DNA of 64,000 nucleotides from Candidatus Dojkabacteria bacterium. Lineage in GTDB: Bacteria > Patescibacteriota > Dojkabacteria > GCA-002793355. Of the stretch, positions 6,260 through 29,026 are shown in pieces. Positions within the stretch are counted from its first letter, which is position 1. Each line of letters begins with the position of its first letter. Position numbers and translations under genes: made by a program. The stretch covers positions 20,345 to 84,344 of the forward strand of contig CP129470.1 of assembly GCA_030583685.1 (NCBI GenBank). The letters run 5' to 3'. The notes beneath the pieces were generated by a model that saw nothing but the letters and a program-made list of their open reading frames with translations, searched no databases and was not told the DNA's origin.

Positions 6260-6754
6260 ATGCAACGATATTTTTGCATCGTAGATACGCCAATCGGCGA
6301 ACTTTTATTGATCGCATCACACAACCACCTCCTCCAAATTGAATTTGATTCAAATAAAGAGTATCCCCGTCGTTCCAATGCAATCCTTTCTTTGGCGGTA
6401 GAACAGCTTGGAGAATATTTTATAGGAGAACGCTCTCACTTTACCATCCCTTATCGATATGTTGGCACTCCGTTTCAAGTCAAGTGCTGGAATTATCTTA
6501 TGACCATTCCGTATGGTGAAACTCGTTCATATCTACAAGAGGCGACCGCAATTTCTTCTCCACGTGCTGTCAGAGCAGTTGCACAGGCAAATAAGCGGAA
6601 TCCTTTGCCAATTCTTACGCCTTGTCATCGCGTCATTGCACATTCTGGTGAACTCTCCGGTTATGGCGGCGGTGTGTGGCGAAAGGAATGGCTCCTTACA
6701 CATGAGAGAGTTCTGAATCGATCCTCTGAAGCATCTCCTCAGCGTCCTTCATAA
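6260..6754 (+). CDS. ogt: Methylated-DNA--protein-cysteine methyltransferase (O6-alkylguanine-DNA alkyltransferase)
   Basis: Active-site PCHRV motif; wHTH DNA-binding region (TPFQVKCWNYLMTIPYGETRSY); divergent from lexA. Confidence 0.85.
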   Translation: MQRYFCIVDTPIGELLLIASHNHLLQIEFDSNKEYPRRSNAILSLAVEQLGEYFIGERSHFTIPYRYVGTPFQVKCWNYLMTIPYGETRSYLQEATAISSPRAVRAVAQANKRNPLPILTPCHRVIAHSGELSGYGGGVWRKEWLLTHERVLNRSSEASPQRPS

Positions 6755-7691
6755 TGATCAGCTCATTTCGTAATTGGGCAGAACCAGGAAAATCACGTAA
6801 ATAAATTTTAAAATACTTTTTCAGTAGTTCAAAGTTTTTTGAATTCCCCCATGTTTCTTGAAACAGGAGAATATGCTTTCGAAGAGCCTGCAATCGTTGA
6901 CCTCGAGAGAGATGAGTGGGCGATTCTGAAAAAATACTGATATCTTCAAAGATACCTCTTCCAACCATCGCACCATCAAATCCATAGGTCACTTTTGTAT
7001 CATGAATATGCTGACGTGAAGTGATGTCACCATTCGCAATAAGAACGAGATCCGGGTTTAGCGCCTCTCTCATCTGCGAATATTCCTTCGCAAGTTCCCA
7101 ATGTGCCGGAACTCTTGTCATTTCTTTTCGAGTTCTCAGGTGTAGGGTTAGCGCATCAATTGGCTGCTGCATCAGAAAGGTAACCCATTCTGGCTGAATA
7201 AGCGTAAAGCCAATTCGCGTTTTTACGCTAAAACCAAAGTGAGGATCAATTTCTTCGATCTTTTCCCGGACACGATGAATAATTTCTTTTGTTTTCTCAA
7301 AATCTCGAATAAGTCCTGAACCGGCACCATTCTTCACAACGTTAACGACGGGACATCCCATGTTAATATCGACCCCAGAAAAACCACGTTCTATAAGCTC
7401 AGGAATAATTGCGACATAAGACTCTACTTGAGTTGCCCATATTTGTGCAACAAGAGGGAGTTCCTGGTGGGTGAATTGTAGTCGATGCGCAACGTGTTCC
7501 CTTCCTTTATCGGATAACAATCCTTCACAGTTTGTGAATTCTGTCATAAAGAGATCTGGCCTTCCATACTCGCAAACAATTTGTCGGAAAACAGTGTCTG
7601 TAACATCTTCCATAGGCGCAAGAATGGTAAAGGCACGGTTTGTCGCTTGGCTTTGTTGCTTCAGTGAAGTCCAGAGAGGGGAGTCCATCAT
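6696..7691 (-). CDS. dus: tRNA-dihydrouridine synthase (DusB-like). Likely start at the internal MMDSPLW Met, so it abuts rather than overlaps the next gene
   Basis: LAPMEDVTD...FRQ N-terminal motif; FMN/active-site DINMGCPV motif with catalytic Cys; TIM-barrel length. Confidence 0.85.
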   Translation of the reverse strand: MMDSPLWTSLKQQSQATNRAFTILAPMEDVTDTVFRQIVCEYGRPDLFMTEFTNCEGLLSDKGREHVAHRLQFTHQELPLVAQIWATQVESYVAIIPELIERGFSGVDINMGCPVVNVVKNGAGSGLIRDFEKTKEIIHRVREKIEEIDPHFGFSVKTRIGFTLIQPEWVTFLMQQPIDALTLHLRTRKEMTRVPAHWELAKEYSQMREALNPDLVLIANGDITSRQHIHDTKVTYGFDGAMVGRGIFEDISIFSESPTHLSRGQRLQALRKHILLFQETWGNSKNFELLKKYFKIYLRDFPGSAQLRNELIIMKDAEEMLQRIDSELSHV

Positions 7692-7693
7692 AA

Positions 7694-8524
7694 CTATAAA
7701 ATCTTGTACGTATTTTTTCCGGAATTTTTTGCTTTCTGTAACTGTGAATCGACTCTTTGCAGGTATAGTTCCCACGCTTTTTTGGTATCCCGTTTTCGCA
7801 ACAGTGTGGTAATTTCTTCTGCTTTCATGAAATAAAGTCCGAGGGATACAGTCGTTTTCATAACTTTGTTTTCTTTGATATTTTTCAGAATTCGTTTTGC
7901 TATTTGCTCCAAAAGGTGTTTATCCGTCGAGCGCATCGGCAATATTGCTAAATATTCATCACCACCCACACGAGCCAATACATCATTTTTCCGGAGCGTC
8001 TTTTTTAAAACGGAAGCGACTTCGACAATCTGTTCATCTCCTCCTAAATAGCCATACCGTGTATTCATTTCCTTCATATTATCGACATCGACAAAGATAA
8101 TACCAATATTGTATCCAAACTGTTCTGAAGACTTAAAAAGGTCAAACAAACTTGCATAATATCCGTGCCGATTTAATGCCCCAGTCAAATTATCAACATA
8201 GGCGACTTCTCGAAACAAAGCAATATCTTCATGTAGTTGATATATCGGCTCAAGGTTTATCAGAGAAACAGTAAATTTTTCTTTACCTTTACGTACCATG
8301 ACGAGAAATCTTTGCGGAGTATTTTTCTCCAGCGAGAGAGTTAAATGGTACTGTTTGTACGAATGTTTTGGGAGCGACAATAGTCTCTCAAATAAATCTG
8401 CATCAGGTTGCACACACAGCTCAACAAACGATTTTCCTTGTAAGGATTTATCTTTTGCATCAATAACAAGGAGGGAAGAGTCTAAAATGAGAAAACTTGC
8501 CTGTATTGTTTTACTTACCGTCAC
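7694..8524 (-). CDS. GGDEF-domain diguanylate cyclase with GGDEY active-site variant and roughly 110-aa N-terminal sensory region
   Basis: RYGYLGGDEQ / LARVGGDEYLAIL motifs, FVDVDNMKEMN (metal-binding D); typical GGDEF spacing. Confidence 0.75.
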   Translation of the reverse strand: MTVSKTIQASFLILDSSLLVIDAKDKSLQGKSFVELCVQPDADLFERLLSLPKHSYKQYHLTLSLEKNTPQRFLVMVRKGKEKFTVSLINLEPIYQLHEDIALFREVAYVDNLTGALNRHGYYASLFDLFKSSEQFGYNIGIIFVDVDNMKEMNTRYGYLGGDEQIVEVASVLKKTLRKNDVLARVGGDEYLAILPMRSTDKHLLEQIAKRILKNIKENKVMKTTVSLGLYFMKAEEITTLLRKRDTKKAWELYLQRVDSQLQKAKNSGKNTYKIL

Positions 8525-8570
8525 GAGCGTATTATACCACTATTACACTAATTTAGCAACCATCTTACCA

Positions 8571-9011
8571 TTACTTTCGCTCATCAAGCGCTTGATTGAC
8601 GAGACTATCCGCTATTTTGTTTTTTTCACGAAGAATATGTTTCAGACTAAATCGAGGGATCAAAGAAAGATACTGATGAATTGAGTTCGCAAGTGTTTTC
8701 AACCGACTTTCTTTGATTTTGTATACACCGGTAAGTTGTTTAACAACCAATTCACTGTCAAGGTTCAGTTCAATCTCCTCACAATGTGGGTATTTCGTAG
8801 AAATATCACGAACTGCAGTGAGCAATGCCTGATATTCTGCTTCATTATTTGTTGCTATGCCAATATACTGATTATATCGCTCAAGCTCAGTACCTGTTTT
8901 ATCAAAGATGACATACCCAATAGCAGCATGTCCTGGATTATTTCGTGAACCACCATCGGTGTAGACAACTAATTTTTCAATATTTTCTGACATTACGATG
9001 TATGATACCAT
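8571..9011 (-). CDS. rnhA: Ribonuclease HI
   Basis: VVYTDGGSRNNPG (DEDD Asp1), TNNEAEYQAL (Glu), C-terminal D...ADSL motif; 146 aa. Confidence 0.85.
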   Translation of the reverse strand: MVSYIVMSENIEKLVVYTDGGSRNNPGHAAIGYVIFDKTGTELERYNQYIGIATNNEAEYQALLTAVRDISTKYPHCEEIELNLDSELVVKQLTGVYKIKESRLKTLANSIHQYLSLIPRFSLKHILREKNKIADSLVNQALDERK

Positions 9012-9020
9012 AGAAGAGAT

Positions 9021-10238
9021 ATGAGACGGCGAATAATTCTAACACTACTCCTGGTTGTCGCTCTTTCGACAAACACTGTCTTTGCAGAATCTCTTGATTC
9101 TACCAACTACAAACTGCTAGACCCTCAAATTGGCGCGGCCTCAGGAACTTCAGCTTCAGATAATTATGCAATTCTCGTTCAAGGAGGATCTGGCATAGGA
9201 CTTGGAGAAATATCCTCCTCCTTATACAAATTAGGTTCAGGTCAAGGGTTTACATTTATGGCAAATGTTCCGAAGGTCTCCTGCTTTGAAACCGTCACCA
9301 CTTCGATGACGACAGACTGTGTTTCTTTACCGGCAAACAACGGAATGGTCGGTGAGTGTGGAGAAGGAGGTTGTTACGATCGAGCTATGTTACAAATTGA
9401 TACTCAAGCAAATCCAACCGACACATTGTACTCAATCCAATTATCCTCCGACAATTGGGCAACCACGTACATTTTAGACGGTACAACAAGAACACTCAAG
9501 GCAGCATCAAGCAAATCGATTGCAGACTATAAAACAAAAGCGCAATGGGAGGGTGCCCCTTGGAATCGGTATAATATTCTTGGGTTACAACCAGACACAG
9601 AGTACAAAGTTCGCCTAACTGCCTTACACGGAGATTTTACAGAATCTTCACCTGGGCCTGAAGCAATTGCGACAACAGGTGTTCCGACAACAGTTTTTGA
9701 TCTCGACATAACGCCCGATATTTCTGGCACCTCCACTGCACCTTACTCAGTCAATCTTGGTGGAGTATCACCAGAATCCTATACATTTCAAACAAACGAA
9801 CGAATTAAGCTGAGTATTTCGACTAATCTGCAAGTTGGCGTATCTGTATTCCTACAAGATGAGTACTCTGGACTACGAAGTCAAAGTACAAGTTTTACGC
9901 TCGAGAGTGATGATGAAGATCTGGCAAACCCAGCGAGTGGTGACGGATTTGGGCTGCAGTTTACTGAATCCGATGAAGCTGCTGCATCGGAAGGTTATAT
10001 TGTCCCCTCAGCAGTGTATGCAGTTTCAGGAACAAATGTCGGGGCAATTTCATCAATCGCTGCAACTCGAGTACTTTGTACACTAACCTCTCCTTCAGGA
10101 ACATGTGGAGTTGATTCCCAAACCTGGGTAACTGATGGAAGAGCGCTGTTTACCCTAGGTCTTCGCGCATCAATACTTGCTCCCGCAGTTGCAGATTACG
10201 AGGACACACTAACCTTTACAATCATGGGAGGGTGGTAA
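9021..10238 (+). CDS. Secreted protein of unknown function (signal peptide, Ser/Thr/Gly-rich)
   Basis: N-terminal MRRRIILTLLLVVALSTNTVFA signal peptide; no enzymatic motif; first gene of a same-strand surface block. Confidence 0.4.
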   Translation: MRRRIILTLLLVVALSTNTVFAESLDSTNYKLLDPQIGAASGTSASDNYAILVQGGSGIGLGEISSSLYKLGSGQGFTFMANVPKVSCFETVTTSMTTDCVSLPANNGMVGECGEGGCYDRAMLQIDTQANPTDTLYSIQLSSDNWATTYILDGTTRTLKAASSKSIADYKTKAQWEGAPWNRYNILGLQPDTEYKVRLTALHGDFTESSPGPEAIATTGVPTTVFDLDITPDISGTSTAPYSVNLGGVSPESYTFQTNERIKLSISTNLQVGVSVFLQDEYSGLRSQSTSFTLESDDEDLANPASGDGFGLQFTESDEAAASEGYIVPSAVYAVSGTNVGAISSIAATRVLCTLTSPSGTCGVDSQTWVTDGRALFTLGLRASILAPAVADYEDTLTFTIMGGW

Positions 10239-16791: not shown

Positions 16792-16843
16792 CCCGCGACT
16801 TCACTTGTATAAGTACACTGTTTTCTAGTATAATTCTGCAAGT

Positions 16844-16926
16844 GCCGGGGTGGTGGAATGGCAGACACGCTACCTTGAGGTGGTAGTGCCCGTAAGGGTG
16901 TGGAGGTTCGACTCCTCTTCCCGGCA
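16844..16926 (+). tRNA. tRNA-Leu (anticodon GAG) with long variable arm
   Basis: Acceptor GCCGGGG/CCCGGCA pairing, anticodon loop TTGAGGT, long extra arm GCCCGTAAGGGTGT, T-loop GGTTCGACTCC. Confidence 0.85.
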
Positions 16927-16942
16927 TATCTCGATTTTCAAT

Positions 16943-17017
16943 CGGGGCGTAGTTCAGTTGGCTAGAACGCACGGTTTGGGACCGTGAGGTCGCGAGTTCG
17001 AGTCCCGCCGCCCCGAT
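16943..17017 (+). tRNA. tRNA-Pro (anticodon TGG)
   Basis: Acceptor CGGGGCG/CGCCCCG, D-arm GTTCAGTTGGCTAGAAC, anticodon stem-loop CACGG-TTTGGGA-CCGTG, T-loop TTCGAGT; 17 nt after tRNA-Leu. Confidence 0.85.
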
Positions 17018-17383: not shown

Positions 17384-17608
17384 TTGATGGATAAGAAAAG
17401 ATCCGATATCGGAAAGGCAATACAAAAAGTGAGGTTAGATAAGGGATTGACTCAAGAGGAATTATCTCGCAAGGCTGATATTCCATATACAACTCTTGCG
17501 AAAATCGAAAGCGGAATGGTTGTAAATCCTAGATTTAAAACCCTTCAAAAAATTGCAACTGCTTTGGAAGTTACAATTGATTATTTAATTAAGTTAGATG
17601 GTAAATAA
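17384..17608 (+). CDS. XRE/Cro-C1-family HTH transcriptional regulator (putative controller of the downstream R-M operon)
   Basis: LTQEELSRKADIPYTTLAKIESG HTH_3 motif; 74 aa; stop overlaps the hsdM start. Confidence 0.75.
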   Translation: MMDKKRSDIGKAIQKVRLDKGLTQEELSRKADIPYTTLAKIESGMVVNPRFKTLQKIATALEVTIDYLIKLDGK

Positions 17609-19358
17609 CATGGCAAAATCAAATCTACATTCAATTATTAGCTTTATTTGGTCTGTAGCAGATGATGTTCTGAGAGATCACTATAAAAAAGGTGAATATC
17701 CAAATGTAATTTTACCAATGACAGTAATAAGAAGAATTGACCTTTCTCTCGATGATACAAAAGCTGATGTCGTAAAGGCATACGAAGACTACAAAGACAA
17801 AATTATTAATCCTCAAGGTCTTCTTGAAAGTGCTTCAAAAAAGAAATACTACAACTACTCGAAATACACTCTTAAAACCCTTTTAAACGAACCAAAAAAC
17901 CTGAAAGAGAATACTCTTTCGTATTTAAACAGCTATTCCGATAATGTAAAAGACATCATCGAAAAGTTTGAGCTTAAGAATATTGTTGAAAAATGCAGTC
18001 GAGATGGAATACTTTTCTCATTAATTGAGAAGTTTGCAGATCCAAAAGTAGCTATTTCCCCTACCGAATTATCAAATCATGAAATGGGACATGTATTTGA
18101 AGATTTAATAAGGCGATTTAACGAAGAAAATAATGAGGAGGCAGGGGAACACTTCACTCCAAGAGAAGTTATTAAACTGATGAATCGAATTGTCTTTGAT
18201 CCTGTTAAAGACAAAATTAAGGATATCGGAACTATTCTTGTATATGATCCTGCATGTGGAACTGGTGGTATGCTTTCAGAATCCAAAGAATATCTGAAGG
18301 ACATTCTTAAATATGATGGTTTTATTCACTTATTTGGTCAAGAAGTAAATGATAAAACATATGCAACTTGTAAAGCAGACCTGCTTATTAAAGGTGAAGA
18401 TCCCGATGGTGTAGCTTTTGGTTCAACATTATCAAATGATGGTTTTCCTGATAAGAAGTTTGATTTTATGCTTACAAATCCTCCATATGGAAAAACTTGG
18501 AAAGACGATCAAAAGAAGCTATTAGTTGGCGATGGGAAGAAGAAACAAATTGTTGATAGTAGGTTTCAAATTGGTATCCCAAGAGTTTCCGATGGACAAC
18601 TATTGTTTGTCGAGCATATGCTTTCCAAAATGAAAACTGATACAGAACTAGGATCAAGAATAGCCTCTGTTCATAATGGCTCAGCTCTCTTTACTGGTGA
18701 TGCAGGACAAGGAGAAAGTGAGATTAGAAAATATTTGTTTGAAAATGATCTAATTGACGCAATTATTGCGCTCCATTCAGATATGTTTTACAACACAGGA
18801 ATACCGACTTATATCTTGTTAATAACTAACAAAAAGCATGAAAAAAGAGTAGGTAAAATTCAACTAATCAATGCTACATCAGAGGAATTTTATACAAACC
18901 TTAAAAAGACTTTAGGCCAAAAAAGAGTTGAAATTACGGATGCACAGATAAATAAAATCTATGAGATTTATACTAAATTTGAAAATTCTGAATTTTCAAA
19001 AATATTTTCTAATAAAGAGTTCGGATATACGCAAATAAAGGTGCACCAACCGAAGAAAGATGAAAAAGGAAATATTATTAGAAAGAAAATGGGAGGTGTC
19101 GAAATTGATAAAAGCTTAGAGGATATTGAAAATATCCCATTGAAAATGGATATTGATACATTCTTTAATGAAGAGGTTAAAAAATATTATCCTGATGCTT
19201 GGTATGAACCTGATGAATCAAAAATTGGATATGAAATAAACTTTAATAAATACTTTTATAAGTTTACTCCGCCTAGATCATCAGATGTAATTTTAAATGA
19301 GTTGAGAATACTTGATAAAGAAACAGACTCATTACTTAAGGAATTACTTAAAGATTAA
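17598..19358 (+). CDS. hsdM: Type I restriction-modification system N6-adenine DNA methyltransferase subunit
   Basis: Motif I (DPACGTGGML), catalytic motif IV NPPYG (MLTNPPYGKTW), N-terminal HsdM_N helical domain. Confidence 0.9.
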   Translation: MVNNMAKSNLHSIISFIWSVADDVLRDHYKKGEYPNVILPMTVIRRIDLSLDDTKADVVKAYEDYKDKIINPQGLLESASKKKYYNYSKYTLKTLLNEPKNLKENTLSYLNSYSDNVKDIIEKFELKNIVEKCSRDGILFSLIEKFADPKVAISPTELSNHEMGHVFEDLIRRFNEENNEEAGEHFTPREVIKLMNRIVFDPVKDKIKDIGTILVYDPACGTGGMLSESKEYLKDILKYDGFIHLFGQEVNDKTYATCKADLLIKGEDPDGVAFGSTLSNDGFPDKKFDFMLTNPPYGKTWKDDQKKLLVGDGKKKQIVDSRFQIGIPRVSDGQLLFVEHMLSKMKTDTELGSRIASVHNGSALFTGDAGQGESEIRKYLFENDLIDAIIALHSDMFYNTGIPTYILLITNKKHEKRVGKIQLINATSEEFYTNLKKTLGQKRVEITDAQINKIYEIYTKFENSEFSKIFSNKEFGYTQIKVHQPKKDEKGNIIRKKMGGVEIDKSLEDIENIPLKMDIDTFFNEEVKKYYPDAWYEPDESKIGYEINFNKYFYKFTPPRSSDVILNELRILDKETDSLLKELLKD

Positions 19359-20698
19359 TGAAAAAGTATAATAATTACAAGCAAACATTCGTGGATTGGA
19401 TTGGAGAGATACCAGAGCAATGGAAAGTAAAACCACTTATGGCTGTATTACAACAACGTAATGAAAAAAATGATCCTGTAAAAACAGAGCAGATTCTTTC
19501 GCTTTCAATCGCAGATGGTGTAACACTATATTCTCATATTGGTAGAGGAGGTAACAAGTCTAAAGGTGATTTGACTGCTTACAAGATAGCTCATGAGGGG
19601 GATATTGTTATGAATAGTATGAATGTTATTGTCGGAGCTGTAGGTCTCTCTAGATATTTTGGAGCAATTAGTCCAGTATATTATGCACTGTTCCCTAAAG
19701 ATGATTCGGTGGAAATTAAATTTTATGAGAATATCTTTAAAAGCAAAGCTTTTCAGAAATTTCTTATGGTATATGGCAAGGGTATACTTATCAAGAAAAG
19801 TGCCTCAGGAAAATTAAATACAATTAGAATGAAGGTCTCTTCAACCGATCTTAGGCGAACACTCCTACCAGTACCTGCGTACATAGAACAAGTAGCAATA
19901 GGACAAGCCCTTGATGAAGCCAACCGCAAGATTGATAAAGTAGTTGAAGGAAAACGTCAGTATATTAACCTCCTTAAAGAATATAAACAGTCAAAAATTA
20001 ATGAATTAGTAACAAAAGGTCTGAACCCAAATGTAAAGATGAAGGATAGTGGGATTGAGTGGTTAGGAGAAATTCCTGAACATTGGGACACCCTGAGACT
20101 CAAAACAATAATTAGTACTTCAAAAAATGGTATTTGGGGTGAAGATGTTAATCAAAATAAACACAATTATCCATGTATTAGAGTTGCAGATTTTGATTAT
20201 ACCCATTACTGTGTAAAAGATGAAATTCTAACATTACGTTCTTATGCTGACAAAGATATTGTGTATCTTATTGAAGAACCGTCTGTATTAATTGAGAAAT
20301 CTGGCGGAGGTGAAAAAATGCCTGTAGGAAGAATTGTTTATTATAACTCTTCAAAACCTTGCATGTGTTCCAATTTTATTTCAAGAATTAAAGTTAAAGA
20401 AGAAAAGGTGTTATTACAATATTTTGTATATTTTATGAGTGTTTTATATTCCAAGAGAGTAATTACAAAATCAATTAAGGCTACTACAGGCATTCAGAAC
20501 ATTGACGAGTATAGTCTTTTTGCCGAAAAAATACTTATACCTCCTGTAAATGAACAGTCTCAAATAGTTAACATAATTAAATCTGTTATTGGTAAATATG
20601 ATCAATTAGTTGAAAAAGCAGAGAAACAGATAGAATTAATTCAACAATATCGCCAATCACTAATATATGAATTAGTAACTGGTAAAAGAAAACCTTAA
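19358..20698 (+). CDS. hsdS: Type I restriction-modification system specificity subunit (two target-recognition domains)
   Basis: Two repeated TRD halves, each followed by a conserved coiled-coil spacer (LIELIQQYRQSLIYELVTGK at the C-terminus; similar central repeat). Start ATGA overlaps the hsdM stop. Confidence 0.8.
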   Translation: MKKYNNYKQTFVDWIGEIPEQWKVKPLMAVLQQRNEKNDPVKTEQILSLSIADGVTLYSHIGRGGNKSKGDLTAYKIAHEGDIVMNSMNVIVGAVGLSRYFGAISPVYYALFPKDDSVEIKFYENIFKSKAFQKFLMVYGKGILIKKSASGKLNTIRMKVSSTDLRRTLLPVPAYIEQVAIGQALDEANRKIDKVVEGKRQYINLLKEYKQSKINELVTKGLNPNVKMKDSGIEWLGEIPEHWDTLRLKTIISTSKNGIWGEDVNQNKHNYPCIRVADFDYTHYCVKDEILTLRSYADKDIVYLIEEPSVLIEKSGGGEKMPVGRIVYYNSSKPCMCSNFISRIKVKEEKVLLQYFVYFMSVLYSKRVITKSIKATTGIQNIDEYSLFAEKILIPPVNEQSQIVNIIKSVIGKYDQLVEKAEKQIELIQQYRQSLIYELVTGKRKP

Positions 20699-20715
20699 AT
20701 TATGAAATAATCAAT

Positions 20716-23697
20716 ATGAACGATCAAAACAATACATTAAATAAAAAAGAATCAGGGTTTGAAGATATTATTTTTGAATTTTTGACTCAATCACAATCTC
20801 CAAAGTATCGTGCAAGAGTAGATTCTGATTATGATAAAGCTAATTGTATTGATTTTGGTCTGCTTATTGAGTTTTTACAACAAACTCAACCTGAAAAGCT
20901 AGAAAAACTAAAGAATATTCACAAAGAACTGTTTGAACGAAATTTTTCCTATCGATTAAACCAACAGGTAAAACTTAAAGGTGTAATTGAAGTCTTAAGA
21001 AAAGGAATTGAAGATATGGGCGTACAATTTACTCTAATGTATCCTCACCCATCTTCCTCAAAGAATCCAAATTCTCAAGAACAATATGATCAAAACATAA
21101 CATCAATAATTAGGCAGGTACATTTTAGCCAACAATCAAATGAGTCTGTAGATTTAGTTCTTTTTGTTAATGGAATACCTGTATTAACTATTGAACTAAA
21201 GAACCCATTATCAGGACAGACTTATCAAGACGCCATATGGCAGTATAGAAATGATCGCTCACCAAAGGAAGAACTCTTTTCATTTACAAGATGTATGGTG
21301 CATTTTGCAATGGATAGTGAGCAGGTCTTTATGTGTACCAAATTAGATGGTGAAAAATCTGTGTTCTTGCCTTTCAATAAAGGAAATAACGAACAAGCAG
21401 GAAACCCTGATAACCCGAATGGTTATAGAACTTCATATATGTGGGAAGAAATATTCCAAAAGGATTCATTAATCAACATTATTGAAAGTTTTGCAAGTAA
21501 AGTGGTTGAGAAAGACGAGGATACAGGGAAAGAGAAAGTTAAACAAATTTTTCCAAGATATCACCAATTGAATTGTGTGAGAAATCTATTAACAGATGCT
21601 AAACAAAATGGTACTGGAAAAAGGTATTTAATTCAGCACTCAGCAGGTTCAGGAAAAAGTAATTCAATTACATGGTTAGCTCATCAATTGGTAGAGCTTC
21701 ATGATTCTACAAACGAGAACACTATTTTTGACAGCGTTATCGTTGTTACTGACAGAAAAGTCCTTGATCAACAGATTAGAAATAACATTAAACAATTTGC
21801 ACATGTAGATGGAGTTGTTGAGGCGATTACAGAAGGAAGTCAACATCTAAGAACTGCGTTAGAATCAGGTAAAAAAGTAATAATTACAACTGTTCAGAAA
21901 TTTCCTTATATTGTAAATGATATTGGGCAACTTCCTTCAAAGAAATTTGCATTGATTATTGATGAGGCTCATTCTTCTCAATCAGGGGAAACTTCAAGAA
22001 ATATTAGCATGACATTGGCTGATAAATCTTCTTTAGGGTATAACGAAGACCAACCTAAGAAAGATTTTGAAGATGAGCTTAATGAAATGGTAGTAAACAA
22101 AAAACTACTTCCAAATGCGAGTTATTTTGCCTTTACAGCAACTCCAAAAAATAAAACATTAGAACTATTTGGTGTTAAACAAACTGATGGCTCTTATAAA
22201 GCCTACCATGTGTATTCTATGCAACAAGCAATTCAAGAGAAATTTATTCTCGATGTTTTGCTTAACTATACGACATATCACACATATTACAGTTTGATTA
22301 AAAAGGTTGAAACAGATCCTGAATACGACAAAAAGGAAGCAAAAAAGATTATCTACAAATTTTTGCAATCTAACCCCGATACAATCGAAAAGAAAGCAAG
22401 AATTATGTTAGATCATTTCAGAAATAATTCTTTATACAAAATTGGAGGAAACGCTAAAGCTATGGTTGTCGCAGGTAGTCGTAAGAACGCAGTTGAATAT
22501 TATTATGCTTTCAATAAGGTATGTGAAGAATTGAATCTTCCTTTTAAGTCAATTGTAGCCTTTACAGGTGAAATAGATGGTTTAACAGAAGATAAGATTA
22601 ACGGATTTAGCATATCTTTGAGATCCGTTAAGAAGAAATTAGAAAATGAAAATACCTATAAATTCTTGATTGTTGCAGAAAAGTTTCAGACAGGATTCGA
22701 TGAACCCCTACTACACTCTATGTATGTAGATAGAATTCTTGCAGGAGTAACCGCAGTTCAAACCCTATCAAGATTGAATCGTGTTATGCCACCTCAAAAA
22801 ACAGATACTTTTGTACTAGATTTTGTTAATACTCACGAAGATATACAAACAGCATTTGAACCTTACTATAAAACAACTGTACTATCTGAAGGAACAGATC
22901 CCAATAAGCTTTTTGACCTCAAAGATGCGATTAAAGGATTCCAAATATTCACAGATGAGGAAGTTACTTCATATGTTATGAAATGTTTAGAAAAAAGATC
23001 CGTAGTTGAACTACACCCCATTATTGATAAAGCAGTTGAGAGATTTACTATTCTTGATGAAGAACATAAGTATGACTTGAAAGCGAAAGTAAAATCATTC
23101 ATTCGACTTTATGCTTATATTTCTCAAATAGCACCTTTTGAAAGTGTAGAACTAGAAAAGCTTTACATTTATCTTTCAGACCTTAATAAAAAACTTGTAA
23201 TAGATGTTAAAAAAGACCCTATTGACGATCTAATTAATGCGATAGACCTCGATTCAATCAGGGTTCAAAAAGAAACAGATGGTTCTATTGGGTTAAAGGG
23301 TGATGAACAGCTTCAACCAAACCCTTCAATAATGAGAGGGGGAAAGTTAAATGAAGAAAAAGACAGATTATCAAGGATTCTAGAGGAAATGAACGAGAGA
23401 TTCGGAGGAATTGATTTTAGCGATGGAGATAAAGTAAGAAAAACCTTTGGTGAGATTGCAGATGATGTTAGAAATGATCCTACATTTATGAAAGCAACGC
23501 TAAATGCCGATAGGCAAAATTCTTGGATAACATTTGAAAAACTCCTAAATGAAAAGTTCCAAAATATGATCAATGTGAACTTTAGTTTGTATAAAAAATA
23601 TTCTGACGATCCTGAGTTTAAAAAGTTTATGGCTGATAGATTGTTTGAGATGGTTTGGGGGCAGTCTAGCTCACAAGGGAGGGAAAGAAATAGTTAA
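20716..23697 (+). CDS. hsdR: Type I restriction enzyme R subunit (SF2 helicase/translocase plus N-terminal PD-(D/E)xK nuclease)
   Basis: Walker A HSAGSGKSNS, DEAH box LIIDEAHSSQ, helicase motifs III-VI (TATP, QTGFDEP, QTLSRLNR); N-terminal nuclease region with D...ELK pattern. Confidence 0.9.
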   Translation: MNDQNNTLNKKESGFEDIIFEFLTQSQSPKYRARVDSDYDKANCIDFGLLIEFLQQTQPEKLEKLKNIHKELFERNFSYRLNQQVKLKGVIEVLRKGIEDMGVQFTLMYPHPSSSKNPNSQEQYDQNITSIIRQVHFSQQSNESVDLVLFVNGIPVLTIELKNPLSGQTYQDAIWQYRNDRSPKEELFSFTRCMVHFAMDSEQVFMCTKLDGEKSVFLPFNKGNNEQAGNPDNPNGYRTSYMWEEIFQKDSLINIIESFASKVVEKDEDTGKEKVKQIFPRYHQLNCVRNLLTDAKQNGTGKRYLIQHSAGSGKSNSITWLAHQLVELHDSTNENTIFDSVIVVTDRKVLDQQIRNNIKQFAHVDGVVEAITEGSQHLRTALESGKKVIITTVQKFPYIVNDIGQLPSKKFALIIDEAHSSQSGETSRNISMTLADKSSLGYNEDQPKKDFEDELNEMVVNKKLLPNASYFAFTATPKNKTLELFGVKQTDGSYKAYHVYSMQQAIQEKFILDVLLNYTTYHTYYSLIKKVETDPEYDKKEAKKIIYKFLQSNPDTIEKKARIMLDHFRNNSLYKIGGNAKAMVVAGSRKNAVEYYYAFNKVCEELNLPFKSIVAFTGEIDGLTEDKINGFSISLRSVKKKLENENTYKFLIVAEKFQTGFDEPLLHSMYVDRILAGVTAVQTLSRLNRVMPPQKTDTFVLDFVNTHEDIQTAFEPYYKTTVLSEGTDPNKLFDLKDAIKGFQIFTDEEVTSYVMKCLEKRSVVELHPIIDKAVERFTILDEEHKYDLKAKVKSFIRLYAYISQIAPFESVELEKLYIYLSDLNKKLVIDVKKDPIDDLINAIDLDSIRVQKETDGSIGLKGDEQLQPNPSIMRGGKLNEEKDRLSRILEEMNERFGGIDFSDGDKVRKTFGEIADDVRNDPTFMKATLNADRQNSWITFEKLLNEKFQNMINVNFSLYKKYSDDPEFKKFMADRLFEMVWGQSSSQGRERNS

Positions 23698-23708
23698 TTA
23701 TTCTTATT

Positions 23709-26459
23709 ATGACAAAATACACAAGAGGTTCGGAATGGAGAAAGTGGGATTTACATATCCATACTCCATTCACAAAACTTAATGATCAATACAAAGTAAA
23801 TCAAGGGGAAGATGTATGGGATAAATACTGTGAGACAATAAAAAAGTCAGATGTAGAAGTCATCGGAATAACTGATTACTTTTCAATTGATAATTATTTA
23901 CTCTTTCTTGACAAATTTAAGAACAAGTACCCAAATAGTAACAAAAGATTTTTCCCTAACATTGAACTGCGATTAGAAGTTAGTGTCAATTCAACAAATG
24001 AAGAAGTAAATATCCATATAATATTCTCAAATAAGGTCAAGGAAAAAAAGATTAAAGATTTCCTAAGTAAACTTGAAACTAATAGAACAAAAAGCGGAGC
24101 CAATATTTTTTGTTCGGATCTTTCTTCGGAAGAGGATTACAAAAAGGCATGTATTGATTATAAAAAACTGAAGCCTACATTAAAAAAAGTATTTGGTAAT
24201 AATGAGTGCTACTTAATCGTTGCACCTGTAAACAATCAAGGATTACGACCAGATTCAAATTCTCCTCGTAAACTAATTACTTCAGACGAAATTGACAAGA
24301 TATGTGATTGCTTTTTTGGTAACAGTTCAAATGTCGACTACTTCTTAGATACTCAAAGATATGAGGCAGATAGTGATGGAAAGAAAGAGTTTTCCAAATC
24401 ATGTCCTGTTGTAACAGGGTCAGACGCACATTCGTTTGAGGATTTAGAGCTTAAGTTAGGCAAAAACTACCTAAAGAAAGATTCACAAGACAAAATATGT
24501 GATTCCTCAGAAATAACATGGATAAAAGCAAATCCTACATTCAATGGGTTAAAACAGATATTATATGAACCAATTGAAAGAGTAAAAATCCAAGAATTGA
24601 GACCCGATGACAAAGAAGACTACCAATTGATTGATAGTGTAAGCTTCATTGATGATAAGTTTACTAATCAATCCATATTACTTAGTAAAAACTTAACTGC
24701 AATTATTGGTGGTAAATCCACTGGTAAATCAATATTGCTTAGAAATATTGCAAAAACGATTGATCCTGATGAAGTCGCAAAGCGTTTGAATGAAGTTTCA
24801 ATGGAGGATTATGATAAACCGATTAATGACTTTAATGTTCTTTGGAATGATTCTCAAAATTTTTCTAAAGGGACAACTTCACAAACTCACAAGAAAATAA
24901 TCTACATTCCTCAATCTTACTTAAATAGATTAATTGATAAAAAAGAAGATAGATCAGCTATTGATGAAATCATTAAGAATGTATTGAATCAACAAGTGGA
25001 AGTTCAACAAGCTTTTGATGGCCTAAAAAAACGAACTAGAGAGATTGAACAATCAATATCTTCAAAAATTGAGCAGTTGTTTTTTACTATTAAAGACTTA
25101 TCAACTATAAAGGAAAAAATAAAAGAGATAGGAGATAAGAAAGGAATTGATACAGAAATTGAAAAACTGAAGATTGAAATCAATGAATTAAAAAAGGTCT
25201 CGAGCTTGTCCAAAACAGATTTGGAAGACTTTGATAAATACACAACTTCTTTAAAATCATTAAATATCAAAGCTTCTCAGATTGAGTATGATATAGATAG
25301 CTTAACGAAAGCTAAGGAAACAGTTCCTTTTGTATTTCCATTACTCGAGAATGTATCAAGCGACATTGCTGATACTTTAAGGGAAACATTTAATAACATA
25401 AAAGTTGAATTAGAACAAAAATATAATCAGGCTTTAGAAACAGAGTTAGGTAAAGCCAATAAGTCACAAGTTGCTACTAAAAAAGAAATTCTTGATATAT
25501 CTTCTAAAATTTTACCAATTCAGAAAAGGATTTCTGAATCGAAGGCTTTAGATGAAAAGATTAGAAAATTAACAGCAGAAGAAGAGAAATTAAAACTCAT
25601 TTCAGAACAAGAAATTAATTTTGAAAAAGTGAGGAAACTATTTGATAACATTATCGAAGAGTTAGTAAATACTCATCAAGATTATTATTCTGAAATCTTT
25701 AAAGCAAAGAATTTAATATTACAACAAAATATTATTAATGGAGAGCTTGAGTTTGATATAAATATTACATTTAAGAATGATAGCTTCCAAAAGCTATTTA
25801 TTGATGAGGTTTGTAATTTAAGAACTTTGACCCAATTTAACGAAGTTGAATTGAACAGTTATCAATTCAAAGATAGTGTTAAATTTAAGGATGAGGTAAA
25901 AAAGATTGTCTTAGGTTTTCTAAAAAAACATATACAATTAAAAAATAATTATACCCAAGCAGATGCAATAAGAAAGCTATTGCAGAATTGGTACATTTTT
26001 GACTTTAAGATAAAACAAAATGGTGATGATTTATCTACAATGTCGCCCGGGAAAAAGTCGTTTGTATTACTAAAACTATTAATCGAACTTGATAATAGCA
26101 AGTGTCCAATCCTATTAGACCAGCCAGAAGATGATCTAGATAATCGGTCAATATATTTTGATTTGGTTAGATTCATTAAAAGCAAGAAAAAAGAACGACA
26201 AATCATCATTGCTACGCATAATCCGAATTTAGTTGTTGGTGCTGATGCTGAGTGCGTTATTGTCGCAAATCAGGAAGGTATAGAAACTAAAAATCGCACA
26301 TATCAGTTTGAATATGTTCAAGGAAGTTTGGAATTCTCACAAAAAATTAAACCAAACCAACCAATACTATATAGTCGAGGTATTCAAGAACATGTTTGTG
26401 ATATTCTCGAAGGTGGACGAGAAGCTTTTGAGAATAGAAAAAATAAATATCATATTTAA
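23709..26459 (+). CDS. Fusion protein: N-terminal PHP-family phosphoesterase domain plus SMC/ABC-type ATPase (Walker A, long coiled-coil insert, Walker B/D-loop/H-loop). Candidate anti-phage effector
   Basis: PHP motifs WDLHIHT (HxH), IGITDY, NIELRLE, NIHIIF in the first roughly 110 aa; Walker A AIIGGKSTGKS about residue 330; roughly 350 aa of heptad-rich K/E/L sequence; C-terminal ILLDQPEDDLD (Walker B) and IIIATHNPNL (H-loop). Confidence 0.6.
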   Translation: MTKYTRGSEWRKWDLHIHTPFTKLNDQYKVNQGEDVWDKYCETIKKSDVEVIGITDYFSIDNYLLFLDKFKNKYPNSNKRFFPNIELRLEVSVNSTNEEVNIHIIFSNKVKEKKIKDFLSKLETNRTKSGANIFCSDLSSEEDYKKACIDYKKLKPTLKKVFGNNECYLIVAPVNNQGLRPDSNSPRKLITSDEIDKICDCFFGNSSNVDYFLDTQRYEADSDGKKEFSKSCPVVTGSDAHSFEDLELKLGKNYLKKDSQDKICDSSEITWIKANPTFNGLKQILYEPIERVKIQELRPDDKEDYQLIDSVSFIDDKFTNQSILLSKNLTAIIGGKSTGKSILLRNIAKTIDPDEVAKRLNEVSMEDYDKPINDFNVLWNDSQNFSKGTTSQTHKKIIYIPQSYLNRLIDKKEDRSAIDEIIKNVLNQQVEVQQAFDGLKKRTREIEQSISSKIEQLFFTIKDLSTIKEKIKEIGDKKGIDTEIEKLKIEINELKKVSSLSKTDLEDFDKYTTSLKSLNIKASQIEYDIDSLTKAKETVPFVFPLLENVSSDIADTLRETFNNIKVELEQKYNQALETELGKANKSQVATKKEILDISSKILPIQKRISESKALDEKIRKLTAEEEKLKLISEQEINFEKVRKLFDNIIEELVNTHQDYYSEIFKAKNLILQQNIINGELEFDINITFKNDSFQKLFIDEVCNLRTLTQFNEVELNSYQFKDSVKFKDEVKKIVLGFLKKHIQLKNNYTQADAIRKLLQNWYIFDFKIKQNGDDLSTMSPGKKSFVLLKLLIELDNSKCPILLDQPEDDLDNRSIYFDLVRFIKSKKKERQIIIATHNPNLVVGADAECVIVANQEGIETKNRTYQFEYVQGSLEFSQKIKPNQPILYSRGIQEHVCDILEGGREAFENRKNKYHI

Positions 26460-26471
26460 AAAGTCAATCTT

Positions 26472-27650
26472 ATGGTTAAATTCATACCAAAATTTAAAGA
26501 TCGTAGTCTATTAGACACAAACTGTAATGAGTTTATTGTTGACGCAGATGTAACAATTAAGAACAAGAATAGCTTTCAAGAGATAGCTACTCAAATCCCT
26601 AATTATGTTATAAACCCAGTTACTAGTCGATTTCCATATAGCTCAACAAAAACTAGTGAAAAATTGCCATATTTTTTTAGCAAAAATGAATTTGCTAAAA
26701 TTCTTTCGAATTCCTCAGAGAGACTTAAAAAGTTAATAATTCCTTGTGTTAAATTTTTACTAGAAACAAATTCCAAGAATGTAATACCCCCATATTTTTA
26801 TGCAGAAGACATTACATCTCAGACCTTTAATGTTAATCTTGAAAATATTGCAAATGTTATAAAGTTTAAGGAAAAAGAAAATGTTCAATTTAGTATCTAT
26901 CCAGTCATAAATGTTTCTTCAAATATTCTTACTAATGATAATTCTATTAGATATGTCGCCTCTATGTATATGTCTGATGAATATTACGAAAATATCTCTG
27001 GTTACTATATATTGATTGATGAGTTTGATGCAAATAAAGCAGATCCTTCAACATTAATTGGGTATTTAAAATTAATCAAAGCACTTTCCAAAAAGGAAGT
27101 ACACTTATTGAATATTAATTCATTCGGATACATTGGACTTTTAGCTGGTGCAACTAGCTTTTCTAGTGGATTAGCTAGTGGTGAAAGTAGCTCTGTAAAT
27201 AATTGGATTAGTGATGATAATCAAAATGCTCCAAGACAAAGACCTCCAAAGTTTATTTATGTACCCGAAATATTCTCATATATTGACGAAATAGAATTAC
27301 AGAAAGCAAATTACACTTGTAATTGCTCACATTGTAATGGGACTCTCCCAAGTACTACTATTTCAAAGAAAAAACATTTTCTTGCATGTAGACAAAGAGA
27401 TATCAAAAATAACTTCTCAGGCGAGTTTGATTCAGATTTATTAGCCTGGGAAAATGTCTTTTCGGAAGCCTTGTCGTATGCTAACAATTTATTAAGTTTG
27501 AAAAAAACAACACGATCATATAGCACATTAGTAACTCCGATTAATAAATGGAATAGTATCTTACCAGTTCTAAAAGACTTAAAAAGTTTAGAAGAAAATG
27601 AAGATCTATTAGCCCAAATTCTAAATGAAATTGATGAAACTAATGATTAG
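26472..27650 (+). CDS. Hypothetical 392-aa protein with a CxCxxC...H putative zinc site; partner of the PHP-ATPase
   Basis: Starts 12 nt after the upstream stop; motif CNCSHCNG...KKKHFLAC near residue 285; no other recognisable motif. Confidence 0.4.
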   Translation: MVKFIPKFKDRSLLDTNCNEFIVDADVTIKNKNSFQEIATQIPNYVINPVTSRFPYSSTKTSEKLPYFFSKNEFAKILSNSSERLKKLIIPCVKFLLETNSKNVIPPYFYAEDITSQTFNVNLENIANVIKFKEKENVQFSIYPVINVSSNILTNDNSIRYVASMYMSDEYYENISGYYILIDEFDANKADPSTLIGYLKLIKALSKKEVHLLNINSFGYIGLLAGATSFSSGLASGESSSVNNWISDDNQNAPRQRPPKFIYVPEIFSYIDEIELQKANYTCNCSHCNGTLPSTTISKKKHFLACRQRDIKNNFSGEFDSDLLAWENVFSEALSYANNLLSLKKTTRSYSTLVTPINKWNSILPVLKDLKSLEENEDLLAQILNEIDETND

Positions 27651-28083
27651 AATTGTCATTGATACAAATGTTGCATTATCGGGACTTCTTAGCTATACAT
27701 CTCCTGAACGCATGATAATTAATTATGCAATGCAAAAAAGAATTTCATTGATAGGTTCAAGAGAAACGTTTTCAGAATTCAAAGAAAAGGTTCTAGAAAA
27801 CAAACGATTTATCAAAGTAGCTAAGGATTTAATGTTTCCACAAAATCAGATCCTATCCCAATACAAGGCGTTAGTTAAGTTTGTTGAAATTGAGCAATCA
27901 TTAAAAGAATTACATTTTTGTGAACAAGATCCCGACGATGACATGTTTTTGCATGTAGCAATTCAATCTGGCACTAATATTCTAATAACAAACGATAATC
28001 ATCTCAGAAAATTAAAGAAAATCAATGAAATAAGAATAATTACACCAACAAAGTTCTTAGAAGTTATTAGAAAGCACTTTTAA
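27625..28083 (+). CDS. PIN-domain protein (predicted RNase/nuclease). Probable true start at the MIRIV Met around 27643, overlapping the upstream stop
   Basis: IRIVIDTNVALSGLL (Asp1), later acidic residues (E..D..ITNDNHL), length about 145 aa, typical of VapC-like PIN. Confidence 0.65.
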   Translation: MKLMKLMIRIVIDTNVALSGLLSYTSPERMIINYAMQKRISLIGSRETFSEFKEKVLENKRFIKVAKDLMFPQNQILSQYKALVKFVEIEQSLKELHFCEQDPDDDMFLHVAIQSGTNILITNDNHLRKLKKINEIRIITPTKFLEVIRKHF

Positions 28084-28734
28084 CATATCATTCCAAAAAT
28101 ACTCACATACATAGTTTTGTTTTGATGAAATGATTTCATCTTTTTGCTTTAATGGCCTGTGAATAAATTGTATTGTTCCATGTTTTAATGTTATGAGACC
28201 AGTATTTGACTTAATTAATTCATTAATAGGAACTAGATGTATTTTATTTGACGGTAAAGCTAAATATACTCTATTTGCAAAGGTTTTATAGCGAGAAGCT
28301 TGAACTAAGCCTCTTTTCCAATCAGAAAGTTTTGATTCAATAGCGATTATATTGTTAGATAGTGGTGCCCAGCCATTAACCTTTATGTAGAAATGTTTGT
28401 CGATTTCCTTTATGAAATGACCTTTAATTAACTGCTTAATTATACGACTTTTCAAATAGCCTTTTGACAATCCAACATAATTAATTATATCTTCGAATGA
28501 GGATGGTTTCTTACGATTTTCTGTTATTAATTCAAGTACCTTAAAATAATTCTCACTTTCTAATTCGTTAACCTGCATGTAATTTTCTCTTTTCCGAATT
28601 CTCTTGTAATTAATTTTTAATCCAACGATATCTGCGACACCATATCCCGAATCTACTTCTGTCTTAGTAATATACCCAGATAATGATAACTTTTCTGCAA
28701 TTGTTTTTGAAAATTCTAATTCTGTCATATCCAT
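28057..28734 (-). CDS. Hypothetical protein, possible wHTH plus PD-(D/E)xK-like nuclease fold; convergent with the PIN gene
   Basis: N-terminal helical segment, then a D-x(n)-E-S-K pattern (VADIVGL...IAIESKLSDWK). Weak, motif-level only. Confidence 0.3.
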   Translation of the reverse strand: MDMTELEFSKTIAEKLSLSGYITKTEVDSGYGVADIVGLKINYKRIRKRENYMQVNELESENYFKVLELITENRKKPSSFEDIINYVGLSKGYLKSRIIKQLIKGHFIKEIDKHFYIKVNGWAPLSNNIIAIESKLSDWKRGLVQASRYKTFANRVYLALPSNKIHLVPINELIKSNTGLITLKHGTIQFIHRPLKQKDEIISSKQNYVCEYFWNDMLKVLSNNF

Positions 28735-29010
28735 TATTATTTAGTATAGTCTTTTTTTAAAAACATGCAAAGTTTAATTTCTTGGTTTTCTCAGTAGAAG
28801 TAATAGCAAATATAGTGGAGAAAACAAAATCCACCCAATACACCCAAAACTTCCAAACCCACTATTTTTGTAGATTCTCTTTCCTTTTCCTCTTTTATAC
28901 ATCATAATAATTACAAGTTTAAATTAACATCGGAGTAATAAGCAAGGAATTTCCAACGATTTTGTAGCTCGGAAACAAACTGCAATACTTTGGAAAAAAG
29001 TTCGTAACGC

Positions 29011-29026
29011 GTCCCGCCGCCCCGAT
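29011..29026. repeat. Right-end att-like direct repeat of the tRNA-Pro 3' end (GTCCCGCCGCCCCGAT)
   Basis: Exact 16-nt match to 17002-17017; the upstream AGTTCG also echoes the tRNA T-arm. Confidence 0.6.

Follow-up and report, generated by a model that had tools for sequence, protein, structure and literature searches.

A divergent TGT-fold protein paired with a predicted PD-(D/E)xK nuclease in a modular gene cassette of a Candidatus Dojkabacteria bacterium

Downstream of a PHP-ATPase gene on contig CP129470.1 (assembly GCA_030583685.1) of a Candidatus Dojkabacteria bacterium lies an open reading frame for a 392-aa protein (gene A; 26472..27650, + strand; NCBI locus QY312_00275), which is followed by a PIN-domain gene (gene B) and a convergent open reading frame (gene C). 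Which of these genes belong together, and what kind of protein does gene A encode? The first-pass annotation had proposed a multi-gene defence module that included the ATPase, and had offered a TGT-like zinc site or, equally, a simple zinc ribbon for the 392-aa protein. All coordinates given here are positions in the window, that is, the whole 64,000-nt stretch of DNA that was analysed; L001, L002 and so forth label the other loci that were compared with the window locus.

A low-GC island at a tRNA-Pro gene

The three genes are part of a low-GC island of 12 kb, located at tRNA-Pro (16942-17017), which holds the A/B/C cassette together with a type I restriction-modification (R-M) system and a TrlF-family ATPase. 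The GC content is 0.29-0.34 at 18-30 kb and ~0.40-0.43 in the flanks (2-kb bins), and the island is bounded by two copies of a 19-nt direct repeat, which are identical at 18 of the 19 positions. The left copy corresponds to the 3' end of tRNA-Pro (16999..17017, + strand), and the right copy is located at 29008..29026 (+ strand). The cassette is horizontally acquired.

Within the island, a co-directional array begins with an XRE/HTH_3 regulator of 73 aa (17387..17608, + strand; PF01381, E = 4e-16). It continues with the type I R-M system (17598..23697, + strand; Pfam and NCBIfam matches), consisting of HsdM (17598-19358), HsdS (19358-20698), and HsdR (20716-23697), and with the TrlF-family PHP-AAA ATPase (23709..26459, + strand; NF045780). 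Successive genes of the array are spaced by 11-17 nt or overlap, and the 12-nt gap between the ATPase and gene A (26460-26471) is present as annotated earlier. Gene B encodes 146 aa from its MIRIV start (27643..28083, + strand, the last position being the stop); this start is supported by homologues, while the frame is also open from an ATG further upstream, at 27625. The MIRIV start yields the anticipated overlap of a few codons with gene A, namely 8 nt in which the stop of A and the start of B are read from the sequence (ATGATTAG; 27643..27650, + strand). An 8-nt overlap recurs in L001, and L002 and L003 have overlaps of at least 14 nt. Gene C faces the array from the other strand (28057..28734, - strand), and by the coordinates of the open reading frames the convergent 3' ends of B and C overlap by 27 nt (28057..28083, unstranded); L001, L002, and L010 show similar convergent overlaps (21-32 nt). 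The open reading frame of gene C comprises 225 aa, and NCBI and the homologues place its start two codons later, resulting in a protein of 223 aa. A promoter and terminator scan returned 56 sites, against 58 expected from shuffled sequence, and hence no excess.

The proteins of the cassette

The product of gene A is a TIM barrel of the TGT superfamily with a zinc subdomain, and it represents a divergent, unnamed and new family. The TGT-type (beta/alpha)8 barrel, the conserved pocket, and the CxCxxC...H zinc site in the C-terminal subdomain that characterizes TGT and DpdA proteins are all retained. The zinc motif, C283-x-C285-xx-C288-x13-H302 (codons at 27318..27377, + strand), is located 72% along the chain; the cluster noted about two-thirds along is thus present, but with a spacer of 13 rather than 14 residues. 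Its ligands are invariant in the five closest homologues and 88-99% conserved across 125 family members. They align with C279/C281/C284/H307 of the archaeosine TGT 1iq8 (ArcTGT zinc motif, E = 0.0017), and the cysteines align with C302/C304/C307 of E. coli Tgt in a profile comparison by hhalign. The same program compared the family with a bacterial Tgt profile of six sequences at a probability of 76% (E = 2.3e-5) and with the single E. coli Tgt sequence at a non-significant probability of 0.5%. E238 falls at the position of the nucleophile D264 and Q96 at that of Q131, correspondences that derive from the 76%-probability profile alignment and not from a structural superposition. The simple zinc ribbon was rejected as an account of the cluster, given that the protein folds as a complete TGT barrel.

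TGT and DpdA proteins carry three invariant active-site aspartates, which serve as general acid/base, in base recognition, and as the nucleophile (PMC10164549). Here, family A departs from DpdA as well as from bacterial and archaeal TGTs. None of the three aspartates is invariant among the 125 sequences: D48 is conserved in 85% of the family and replaced by asparagine in the window protein, the base-recognition segment (FDEC) is gapped in the hhalign alignment, and the nucleophile position is occupied by Glu in the window protein and by Glu or Asp in 75-96% of the members (position 238). Since the aspartate trio is not kept, catalysis by the gene A product is uncertain and its designation as a DNA-modifying, DpdA-like enzyme should not be assumed. 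The likeness to the TGT family suggested by the first-pass annotation therefore holds for the barrel and the zinc ligands, but not for the catalytic signature. The pattern is opposite to that of Cap10, a TGT-family protein of type IV CBASS that acts on deazaguanylated protein and has lost the zinc site while keeping the nucleobase-reading and catalytic aspartates; moreover, the locus contains neither a CD-NTase nor a QueC-like Cap9.

The Pfam TGT model PF01702 does not match the window protein and matches one of 88 relatives (E = 2e-4), scans of Pfam, NCBIfam, PADLOC (PADLOC-DB 2.0), and PHROG produced no match for gene A, and a PDB sequence search with a five-sequence profile found nothing. 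A viral fold search in BFVD returned weak viral TGT matches only (TM about 0.4). Given that gene A has no NCBIfam match, nothing identifies it as TrlG, and this assignment is unsupported. The protein is acidic (pI 5.5) and ends in an acidic C-terminal tail. Such acidity is unexpected for a nucleic-acid binder.

Gene B belongs to the PIN_3 family, with scores above the cutoffs of PF13470 (E = 5e-15, 56.7 bits; cutoff 27) and TIGR00305 (60 bits; cutoff 29.15). The acidic residues expected of a PIN domain are invariant (D7, E22, E45, D96, D98-D100, and D118, in MIRIV numbering), and the protein is basic (pI 9.2). PADLOC gives a weak HEC-03A match only, and a PDB sequence search found nothing. With its acidic active-site residues kept, gene B resembles the VapC-like toxins of PIN_3 and TIGR00305. 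However, its upstream overlapping partner is the 392-aa TGT-fold protein and not the small DNA-binding antitoxin found directly upstream of the toxin in VapBC-like, type II toxin-antitoxin (TA) pairs, and the PIN protein is one of several interchangeable third components.

Gene C encodes a predicted PD-(D/E)xK nuclease that keeps the full E-D-ExK-Q signature and contains a winged-helix insertion. The restriction-endonuclease-like fold with its D...(D/E)xK motif, proposed earlier from a D...ESK pattern, is borne out, as E26, D35, E133-S-K135, and Q145 do not vary across the wider gene C family. The core fold and the E...D...ExK...Q arrangement are shared with PD-(D/E)xK proteins that carry fused DNA-binding modules, such as NucS, AF1548, type II/IIS restriction endonucleases, and Can2. 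In contrast to these proteins, the winged helix of gene C sits inside the catalytic core, inserted ~98 residues into it, between the D strand and the ExK strand. Scans of Pfam, NCBIfam, PADLOC-DB 2.0, and PHROG gave no match for gene C, and a PDB sequence search found nothing. The gene C product could act as a regulator through its winged helix-turn-helix instead of being an effector.

A core pair with an exchangeable third component

Genes A, B, and C each have homologues at 45-58% identity that are arranged alike elsewhere, and the three open reading frames are therefore not a chance pattern. Related loci were recovered by a scan with an alignment of gene C, and a gene C homologue lies beside the gene A relative in every locus with a readable flank, covering about ten phyla. 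Likewise, the sizes of the contigs carrying A matches coincide with those carrying C matches. Genes A and C constitute the invariant core across phyla. The convergent arrangement of the pair is shared by the window, L001, L002, L008, L009, and L010. In L005-7, gene C is located upstream of gene A and overlaps it, and the order is also rearranged in L018, L019, L021-L023, and L025-L027. The pairing extends to A relatives that lack the zinc site (L020, L024, and L028).

The third component is swappable by lineage, being a PIN_3 protein, a Ser/Thr kinase, an FRG (ART-like) protein, or a 778-aa unknown protein. The PIN gene is present in the window, L001, L002, L003, L008, L009, and L010/L011, and gene B is a lineage-specific third component rather than part of the conserved core. 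The Ser/Thr kinase is fused to A in 16 of 88 relatives and encoded by a separate gene in others. The FRG domain has been treated as a candidate immune effector (PMC9503650). The A family as a whole is sporadic, comprising 158 clusters among 1.8 billion representatives, and a search of the GTDB species representatives with close-clade A patterns found none. A second, word-indexed homologue search contributed few extra sequences.

The upstream ATPase belongs to a family that takes its name from the trlR-trlF-trlG locus of Photorhabdus (PMC7554251). At 544.9 bits against the equivalog model NF045780 (cutoff 350), it is a bona fide TrlF, with additional weak PADLOC matches to Ppl. It is absent from all other A/C loci examined, and hence is a separate neighbour that was rejected as a component of the A/B/C module, in contrast to the co-conserved genes themselves. 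TrlF matches are found in 820 plasmid records; the two plasmid loci examined show it alone or next to type I R-M genes, and neither has A, B, or C in the vicinity. Both the ATPase and the type I R-M system share the 12-kb island with the cassette but are independent of it. The proposal of a multi-gene module thus survives for A, PIN, and C, which co-occur elsewhere in defence-island and mobile settings, but not for the PHP-ATPase. Nor is there a conserved ATPase-A-PIN unit, given that the core is gene A with the convergent gene C and that the PIN gene is replaced elsewhere by a kinase or FRG gene.

Possible functions of the cassette

The A/C module is located in islands, next to or within R-M operons, and on mobile elements. 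A type I R-M system adjoins the module in the window, L001, and L024, the A-C pair of L025 has type III Mod on one side and Res on the other, and an HpaII R-M system lies near the module in L009. Further defence-type neighbours across the loci include AbiEi, HicA, RelB, and RhuM, mobile-element neighbours include serine recombinases, terminase, Rep_trans, and relaxase/TraG, and housekeeping genes also occur in the flanks. Literature searches found no description of the A-C gene pair. Judging from this context, we favour, with an even chance of its being correct, the reading that genes A, B, and C form a mobile, modular conflict cassette directed against phages or plasmids.

In the mechanism proposed for this cassette, the gene A product would bind nucleic acid through its zinc/KKxH region and take a flipped-out base into the TGT-type pocket, so that an unusual base in the DNA or RNA of an invader is either sensed or excised. 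This event would release or license the nucleases, with C cutting DNA and the PIN protein cutting RNA as a back-up by abortive infection. The gene A product, acidic and translationally coupled to the basic PIN protein, may also keep the latter inactive until a trigger arrives. A more specific version, which we put forward tentatively and consider rather improbable, is that the gene A product has been catalytically repurposed as a TGT-fold base reader or glycosylase that recognises hypermodified or other foreign bases of invading nucleic acid, licensing a dedicated nuclease (gene C) and an exchangeable abortive-infection effector (PIN, kinase, or FRG). One example of such foreign bases would be the 7-deazaguanines introduced by phages through DpdA.

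Alternatively, the pair could operate as a Dpd-like R-M system, in which A is an active DNA transglycosylase that marks the host DNA as self by base exchange, C is the cognate restriction endonuclease for unmarked DNA, and PIN, kinase, and FRG are add-ons. The retained zinc site, the carboxylate at the nucleophile position, the convergent A/C layout resembling many type II R-M pairs, and the location of the pair within or beside R-M operons would all fit. We nevertheless regard this arrangement as unlikely, considering that the aspartates invariant in TGT and DpdA (PMC10164549) are not invariant in family A, with N48 in the window protein and the FDEC segment gapped, and that some relatives without the zinc site still keep C. 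Furthermore, neither DpdB and DpdC nor preQ0 synthesis genes such as queC/D/E occur in the annotated flanks of the window, L001, and L005-L010; both the nuclease partner and the exchangeable third gene differ from the Dpd system, with kinase, FRG, and PIN partners being typical of abortive infection and not of R-M; and some of the hosts are CPR bacteria, whose metabolism is minimal. A variant type II TA system, with the PIN_3 protein as toxin, A as a large antitoxin, and C unrelated, is improbable to a greater degree. TIGR00305 does name the PIN protein as a TA toxin, TA pairs typically overlap as A and B do here by 8 nt, and the acidic A protein with its acidic tail is matched by a basic PIN. 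Yet a PIN partner is lacking in most members of the A family, whereas C always accompanies them and is co-conserved (45-58% identity) in every locus with a PIN gene, and a conserved 392-aa TIM barrel with a zinc site is not a short DNA-binding antitoxin.

The close spacing of the array (gaps of 11-17 nt or overlaps) and the repeated placement of A and TrlF, each beside type I R-M systems, might also suggest one integrated system of type I R-M, TrlF, A, and PIN, with the PHP-ATPase driving A in the way that DpdB drives DpdA. We consider this very unlikely, as TrlF is missing at every other A+C locus, as its plasmid occurrences are without the cassette, and as gene A of L001 directly follows HsdS with no ATPase in between. 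Least credible, to the point of being barely tenable, is that A is a divergent housekeeping TGT modifying tRNA and that the nucleases are chance neighbours. The TGT fold and zinc site would agree with such a role, but gene A resides in the low-GC island with tRNA-derived repeats at its borders, its distribution is sporadic, its linkage to C is strict in differing gene orders, and the catalytic trio is not kept.

The TGT fold has been reused beyond tRNA modification, namely in DpdA (DNA marking), Cap10 (protein-linked deazaguanine), and the BRC systems. Family A would add a fourth, unnamed branch that keeps the zinc site and not the canonical catalytic trio, and that is strictly paired with a new winged-helix-inserted predicted nuclease and accompanied by PIN, kinase, or FRG as third component. 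Provided that the cassette does serve in defence, its two or three genes make a compact system for testing and may include a sensor of modified nucleic acid. It would also exemplify the defence genes of CPR/Patescibacteria, a group with a poorly known immune repertoire. Should gene A indeed encode a base reader, the cassette would represent a new class of modification-sensing immunity, built on a fold that phages use against restriction. For the locus itself, the gene grouping is corrected, with the adjacent TrlF ATPase as a separate unit.

A conserved gene pair: gene A and a convergent predicted nuclease

The 392-aa protein of the window (gene A, 26472-27650) is followed by a PIN gene (gene B, 27643-28083) and by a convergent gene (gene C, 223/225 aa, 28057-28734). 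The PIN gene exceeds the Pfam and NCBIfam cutoffs, and its acidic residues D7, E22/E45, D96-D100 and D118 are kept in all homologues, which agrees with the domain assigned in the first-pass annotation. Using the MIRIV start, it overlaps gene A by 8 nt (ATGATTAG), as this annotation had anticipated, and its 3' end overlaps that of gene C by 27 nt, both read directly from the sequence. Gene C (223 aa) matched no family, and neither gene A nor gene C is matched by a model in Pfam, NCBIfam, PADLOC or PHROG. In the AF2 model of gene C (pLDDT 93.9), a winged helix separates the D33 strand from the E131-x-K133 strand. Residues E24, D33, E131, K133 and Q143 do not vary across 27 sequences, and the D...ESK pattern noted earlier is retained as E...D...E-x-K...Q.

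The co-occurrence of the three genes in other genomes was borne out: the A-PIN-C order, with C convergent, recurs at comparison loci L001, L002, L008, L009 and L010/L011, and L003 carries A-PIN before its contig ends. At L005-L007, gene C (hhalign 99.5%) lies directly upstream of, and overlaps, a relative of A (24% identity), and there is no PIN gene at this pair. Searching GTDB species representatives with the gene C alignment gave 11 loci, from Nitrospirae, Saccharibacteria (two), Terriglobales, Salibacterium aidingense DSM 18341, Desulfocapsa, Phycisphaeraceae, Aminicenantes, Patescibacteria, Desulfuromonadaceae and Planctomycetota. An A-family gene adjoins C in eight of them, and a zinc-less distant A relative of 410-424 aa (hhalign 87.6%, E = 3.5e-6) is present in the remaining three. 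Gene C therefore adjoins an A-type gene at every locus where the flank was readable. Contigs with independent A matches and those with independent C matches also coincide in size. In the public annotation of L008 (8001-9675), the A homologue P0007 reads two TGA codons as Trp, so that gene A is lengthened and a PIN_3 ORF (9202-9675) is masked; translation with table 11 gives a normal A-PIN-C triad.

Gene A in the TGT superfamily

A word-indexed search returned only four homologues of gene A (47-55% identity). When the profile was run exhaustively against 1.84 billion representatives, it matched 158 clusters, of which 45 scored below 1e-30. Nearly all full-length members have the CxCxxC...H motif, which in the window reads C283-x-C285-xx-C288-x13-H302; the cluster described in the first-pass annotation is thus real, but its spacer has 13 residues rather than 14. 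The family profile matches archaeosine TGT across this motif (E = 0.0017) and aligns with a six-sequence bacterial Tgt profile in hhalign (probability 76%, E = 2.3e-5, 178 columns). The suspected TGT likeness therefore proved right, and a simple zinc ribbon was rejected.

In the hhalign alignment, the three zinc-motif cysteines pair with Tgt C302, C304 and C307, Q96 with Tgt Q131, and E238 (D/E in 75-96% of members) with the nucleophile D264; the FDEC segment, in which the base-recognition Asp lies, falls in a gap. No acidic residue is better conserved than D48 (85%, motif I-D-P-x-T), which we infer to be the counterpart of the general acid/base Asp because of its placement ahead of the Q96 helix, in a region outside the alignment. 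D48 and Q96 are present in 85-90% of the family; gene A of the window and its homologue P0003 have Asn and Leu instead. As both residues are substituted in the same two proteins, the paired change suggests that positions 48 and 96 may cooperate in the pocket. The DpdA structure paper reports three active-site aspartates that do not vary in either TGT or DpdA (PMC10164549), whereas the gene A family has no invariant Asp; Cap10 has lost the zinc site and kept its Asp residues, which is the reverse of what we see here. The family is thus a distinct branch of the TGT superfamily, neither canonical TGT nor DpdA, with a conserved putative pocket (D/N48, T51, Y67, R84, Q96, P107-Y108, Y166, E238 and Y263).

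An interchangeable third component and its genomic context

The partner of the A-C core varies with lineage. PIN_3 is the third component in the clade of the window. Gene A carries an N-terminally fused Ser/Thr kinase in 16 of 88 distant members and also in L018, L019, L021, L023, L025 and L027, and L022 has a separate Ser/Thr kinase gene adjoined by a PP2C phosphatase gene, suggesting a phosphorylation switch in this variant; both precede a zinc-less A relative (6602-9549). An FRG-domain gene takes this place in L020, L024 and L028, and FRG has been proposed to be an immune effector of the ART superfamily (PMC9503650). The A relatives at these loci (about 6600-8750) do not have the CxCxxC...H ligands and keep their C partner. 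A 778-aa protein downstream of the C-A pair in L005-L007 (9273-11609 in L005), with no Pfam or PHROG match, may be a further third component.

The window, L001 and L024 have type I restriction-modification (R-M) genes next to the module, and L009 has HpaII R-M genes together with a PLD-family gene. In an Aminicenantes MAG (L025, 2005-9212), kinase-fused A and C are located between the Mod methylase and Res subunit of a type III system, all four genes on one strand with overlapping ends. Other flanks contain defence-type genes (AbiEi, HicA, RelB, RhuM, GmrSD) and mobile-element genes (serine recombinases, small terminase, Rep_trans, relaxase/TraG). Housekeeping genes occur there as well, so the module is often a small insertion. 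Taken together, the conserved pair of proteins, the exchangeable third component, the location within R-M operons and the carriage on mobile elements are what one usually sees in prokaryotic defence or conflict systems, as read from genomic context. Through its TGT pocket, gene A might receive a base flipped out of foreign nucleic acid and either sense or excise it, and it could govern the nucleases, with C acting on DNA and PIN on RNA.

Gene A is acidic (pI 5.5) and the PIN protein basic (pI 9.2); translationally coupled to PIN, gene A may hold it inactive until a trigger arrives. A plain toxin-antitoxin pair would share this feature, yet we regard it as improbable beside a core that also occurs with other partners. 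Somewhat less doubtful, though still unlikely, is a Dpd-like R-M system. A housekeeping TGT is barely credible. TGT homologues are documented in Dpd, type IV CBASS and BRC systems (PMC12839542), but in contrast to the A-C module these have other partners and retain their catalytic residues. The first-pass annotation had joined the upstream PHP-AAA ATPase (916 aa, 23709-26459) to A and PIN as one coupled unit. The 12-nt gap between ATPase and gene A is as described, but this TrlF-family AAA-like ATPase (NF045780, 545 bits versus a cutoff of 350; weak similarity to Ppl) is absent from all other examined loci bearing the downstream genes. The coupled unit is thus not upheld, and a single integrated system including TrlF is highly unlikely; the close TrlF-A-PIN spacing comes from packing within an island rather than from a conserved operon of three genes. 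We found no description of the A-C gene pair in the open-access literature searched, and rate the finding as a candidate defence-island system made of known folds.

TrlF and the tRNA-Pro island

TrlF is named after the trlR-trlF-trlG temperature-restriction locus of Photorhabdus (PMC7554251). TrlF-family ATPases matched 820 plasmid records (tblastn), the majority of them conjugative plasmids from Enterobacterales and lactic acid bacteria. Of two such loci examined (L029, L030), one adjoins a type I R-M system and the other stands alone; genes A, B and C were not found beside TrlF at either. On pLDW-11 the TrlF gene is divergent and adjoins type I R-M genes, echoing the arrangement in the window.

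The window derives from a Candidatus Dojkabacteria (CPR) MAG, and its gene A product is identical to QY312_00275 (889-kb contig). GC content is 0.29-0.34 between 18 and 30 kb (2-kb bins), compared to about 0.40-0.43 in the flanking bins. Upstream are tRNA-Leu and tRNA-Pro (16843-17017); the 3'-terminal 19 nt of tRNA-Pro (16999-17017) are found again at 29008-29026, matching at 18 of 19 positions. Together with the low GC content, this repeat therefore indicates an island of roughly 12 kb inserted at tRNA-Pro, within which no integrase gene was seen. Its first gene encodes a 73-aa XRE/HTH_3 protein (17387-17608), which could control the whole co-directional array in the manner of a C protein or of TrlR. 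This gene and the first ATG of hsdM overlap by 11 nt. HsdM, HsdS and HsdR follow (17598-23697), and after them come TrlF and genes A, B and C. The interior of hsdS contains a 40-nt imperfect direct repeat (19974-20013 and 20640-20679; 75% identity, 666 nt apart), probably the conserved region whose duplication commonly flanks the second target-recognition domain.
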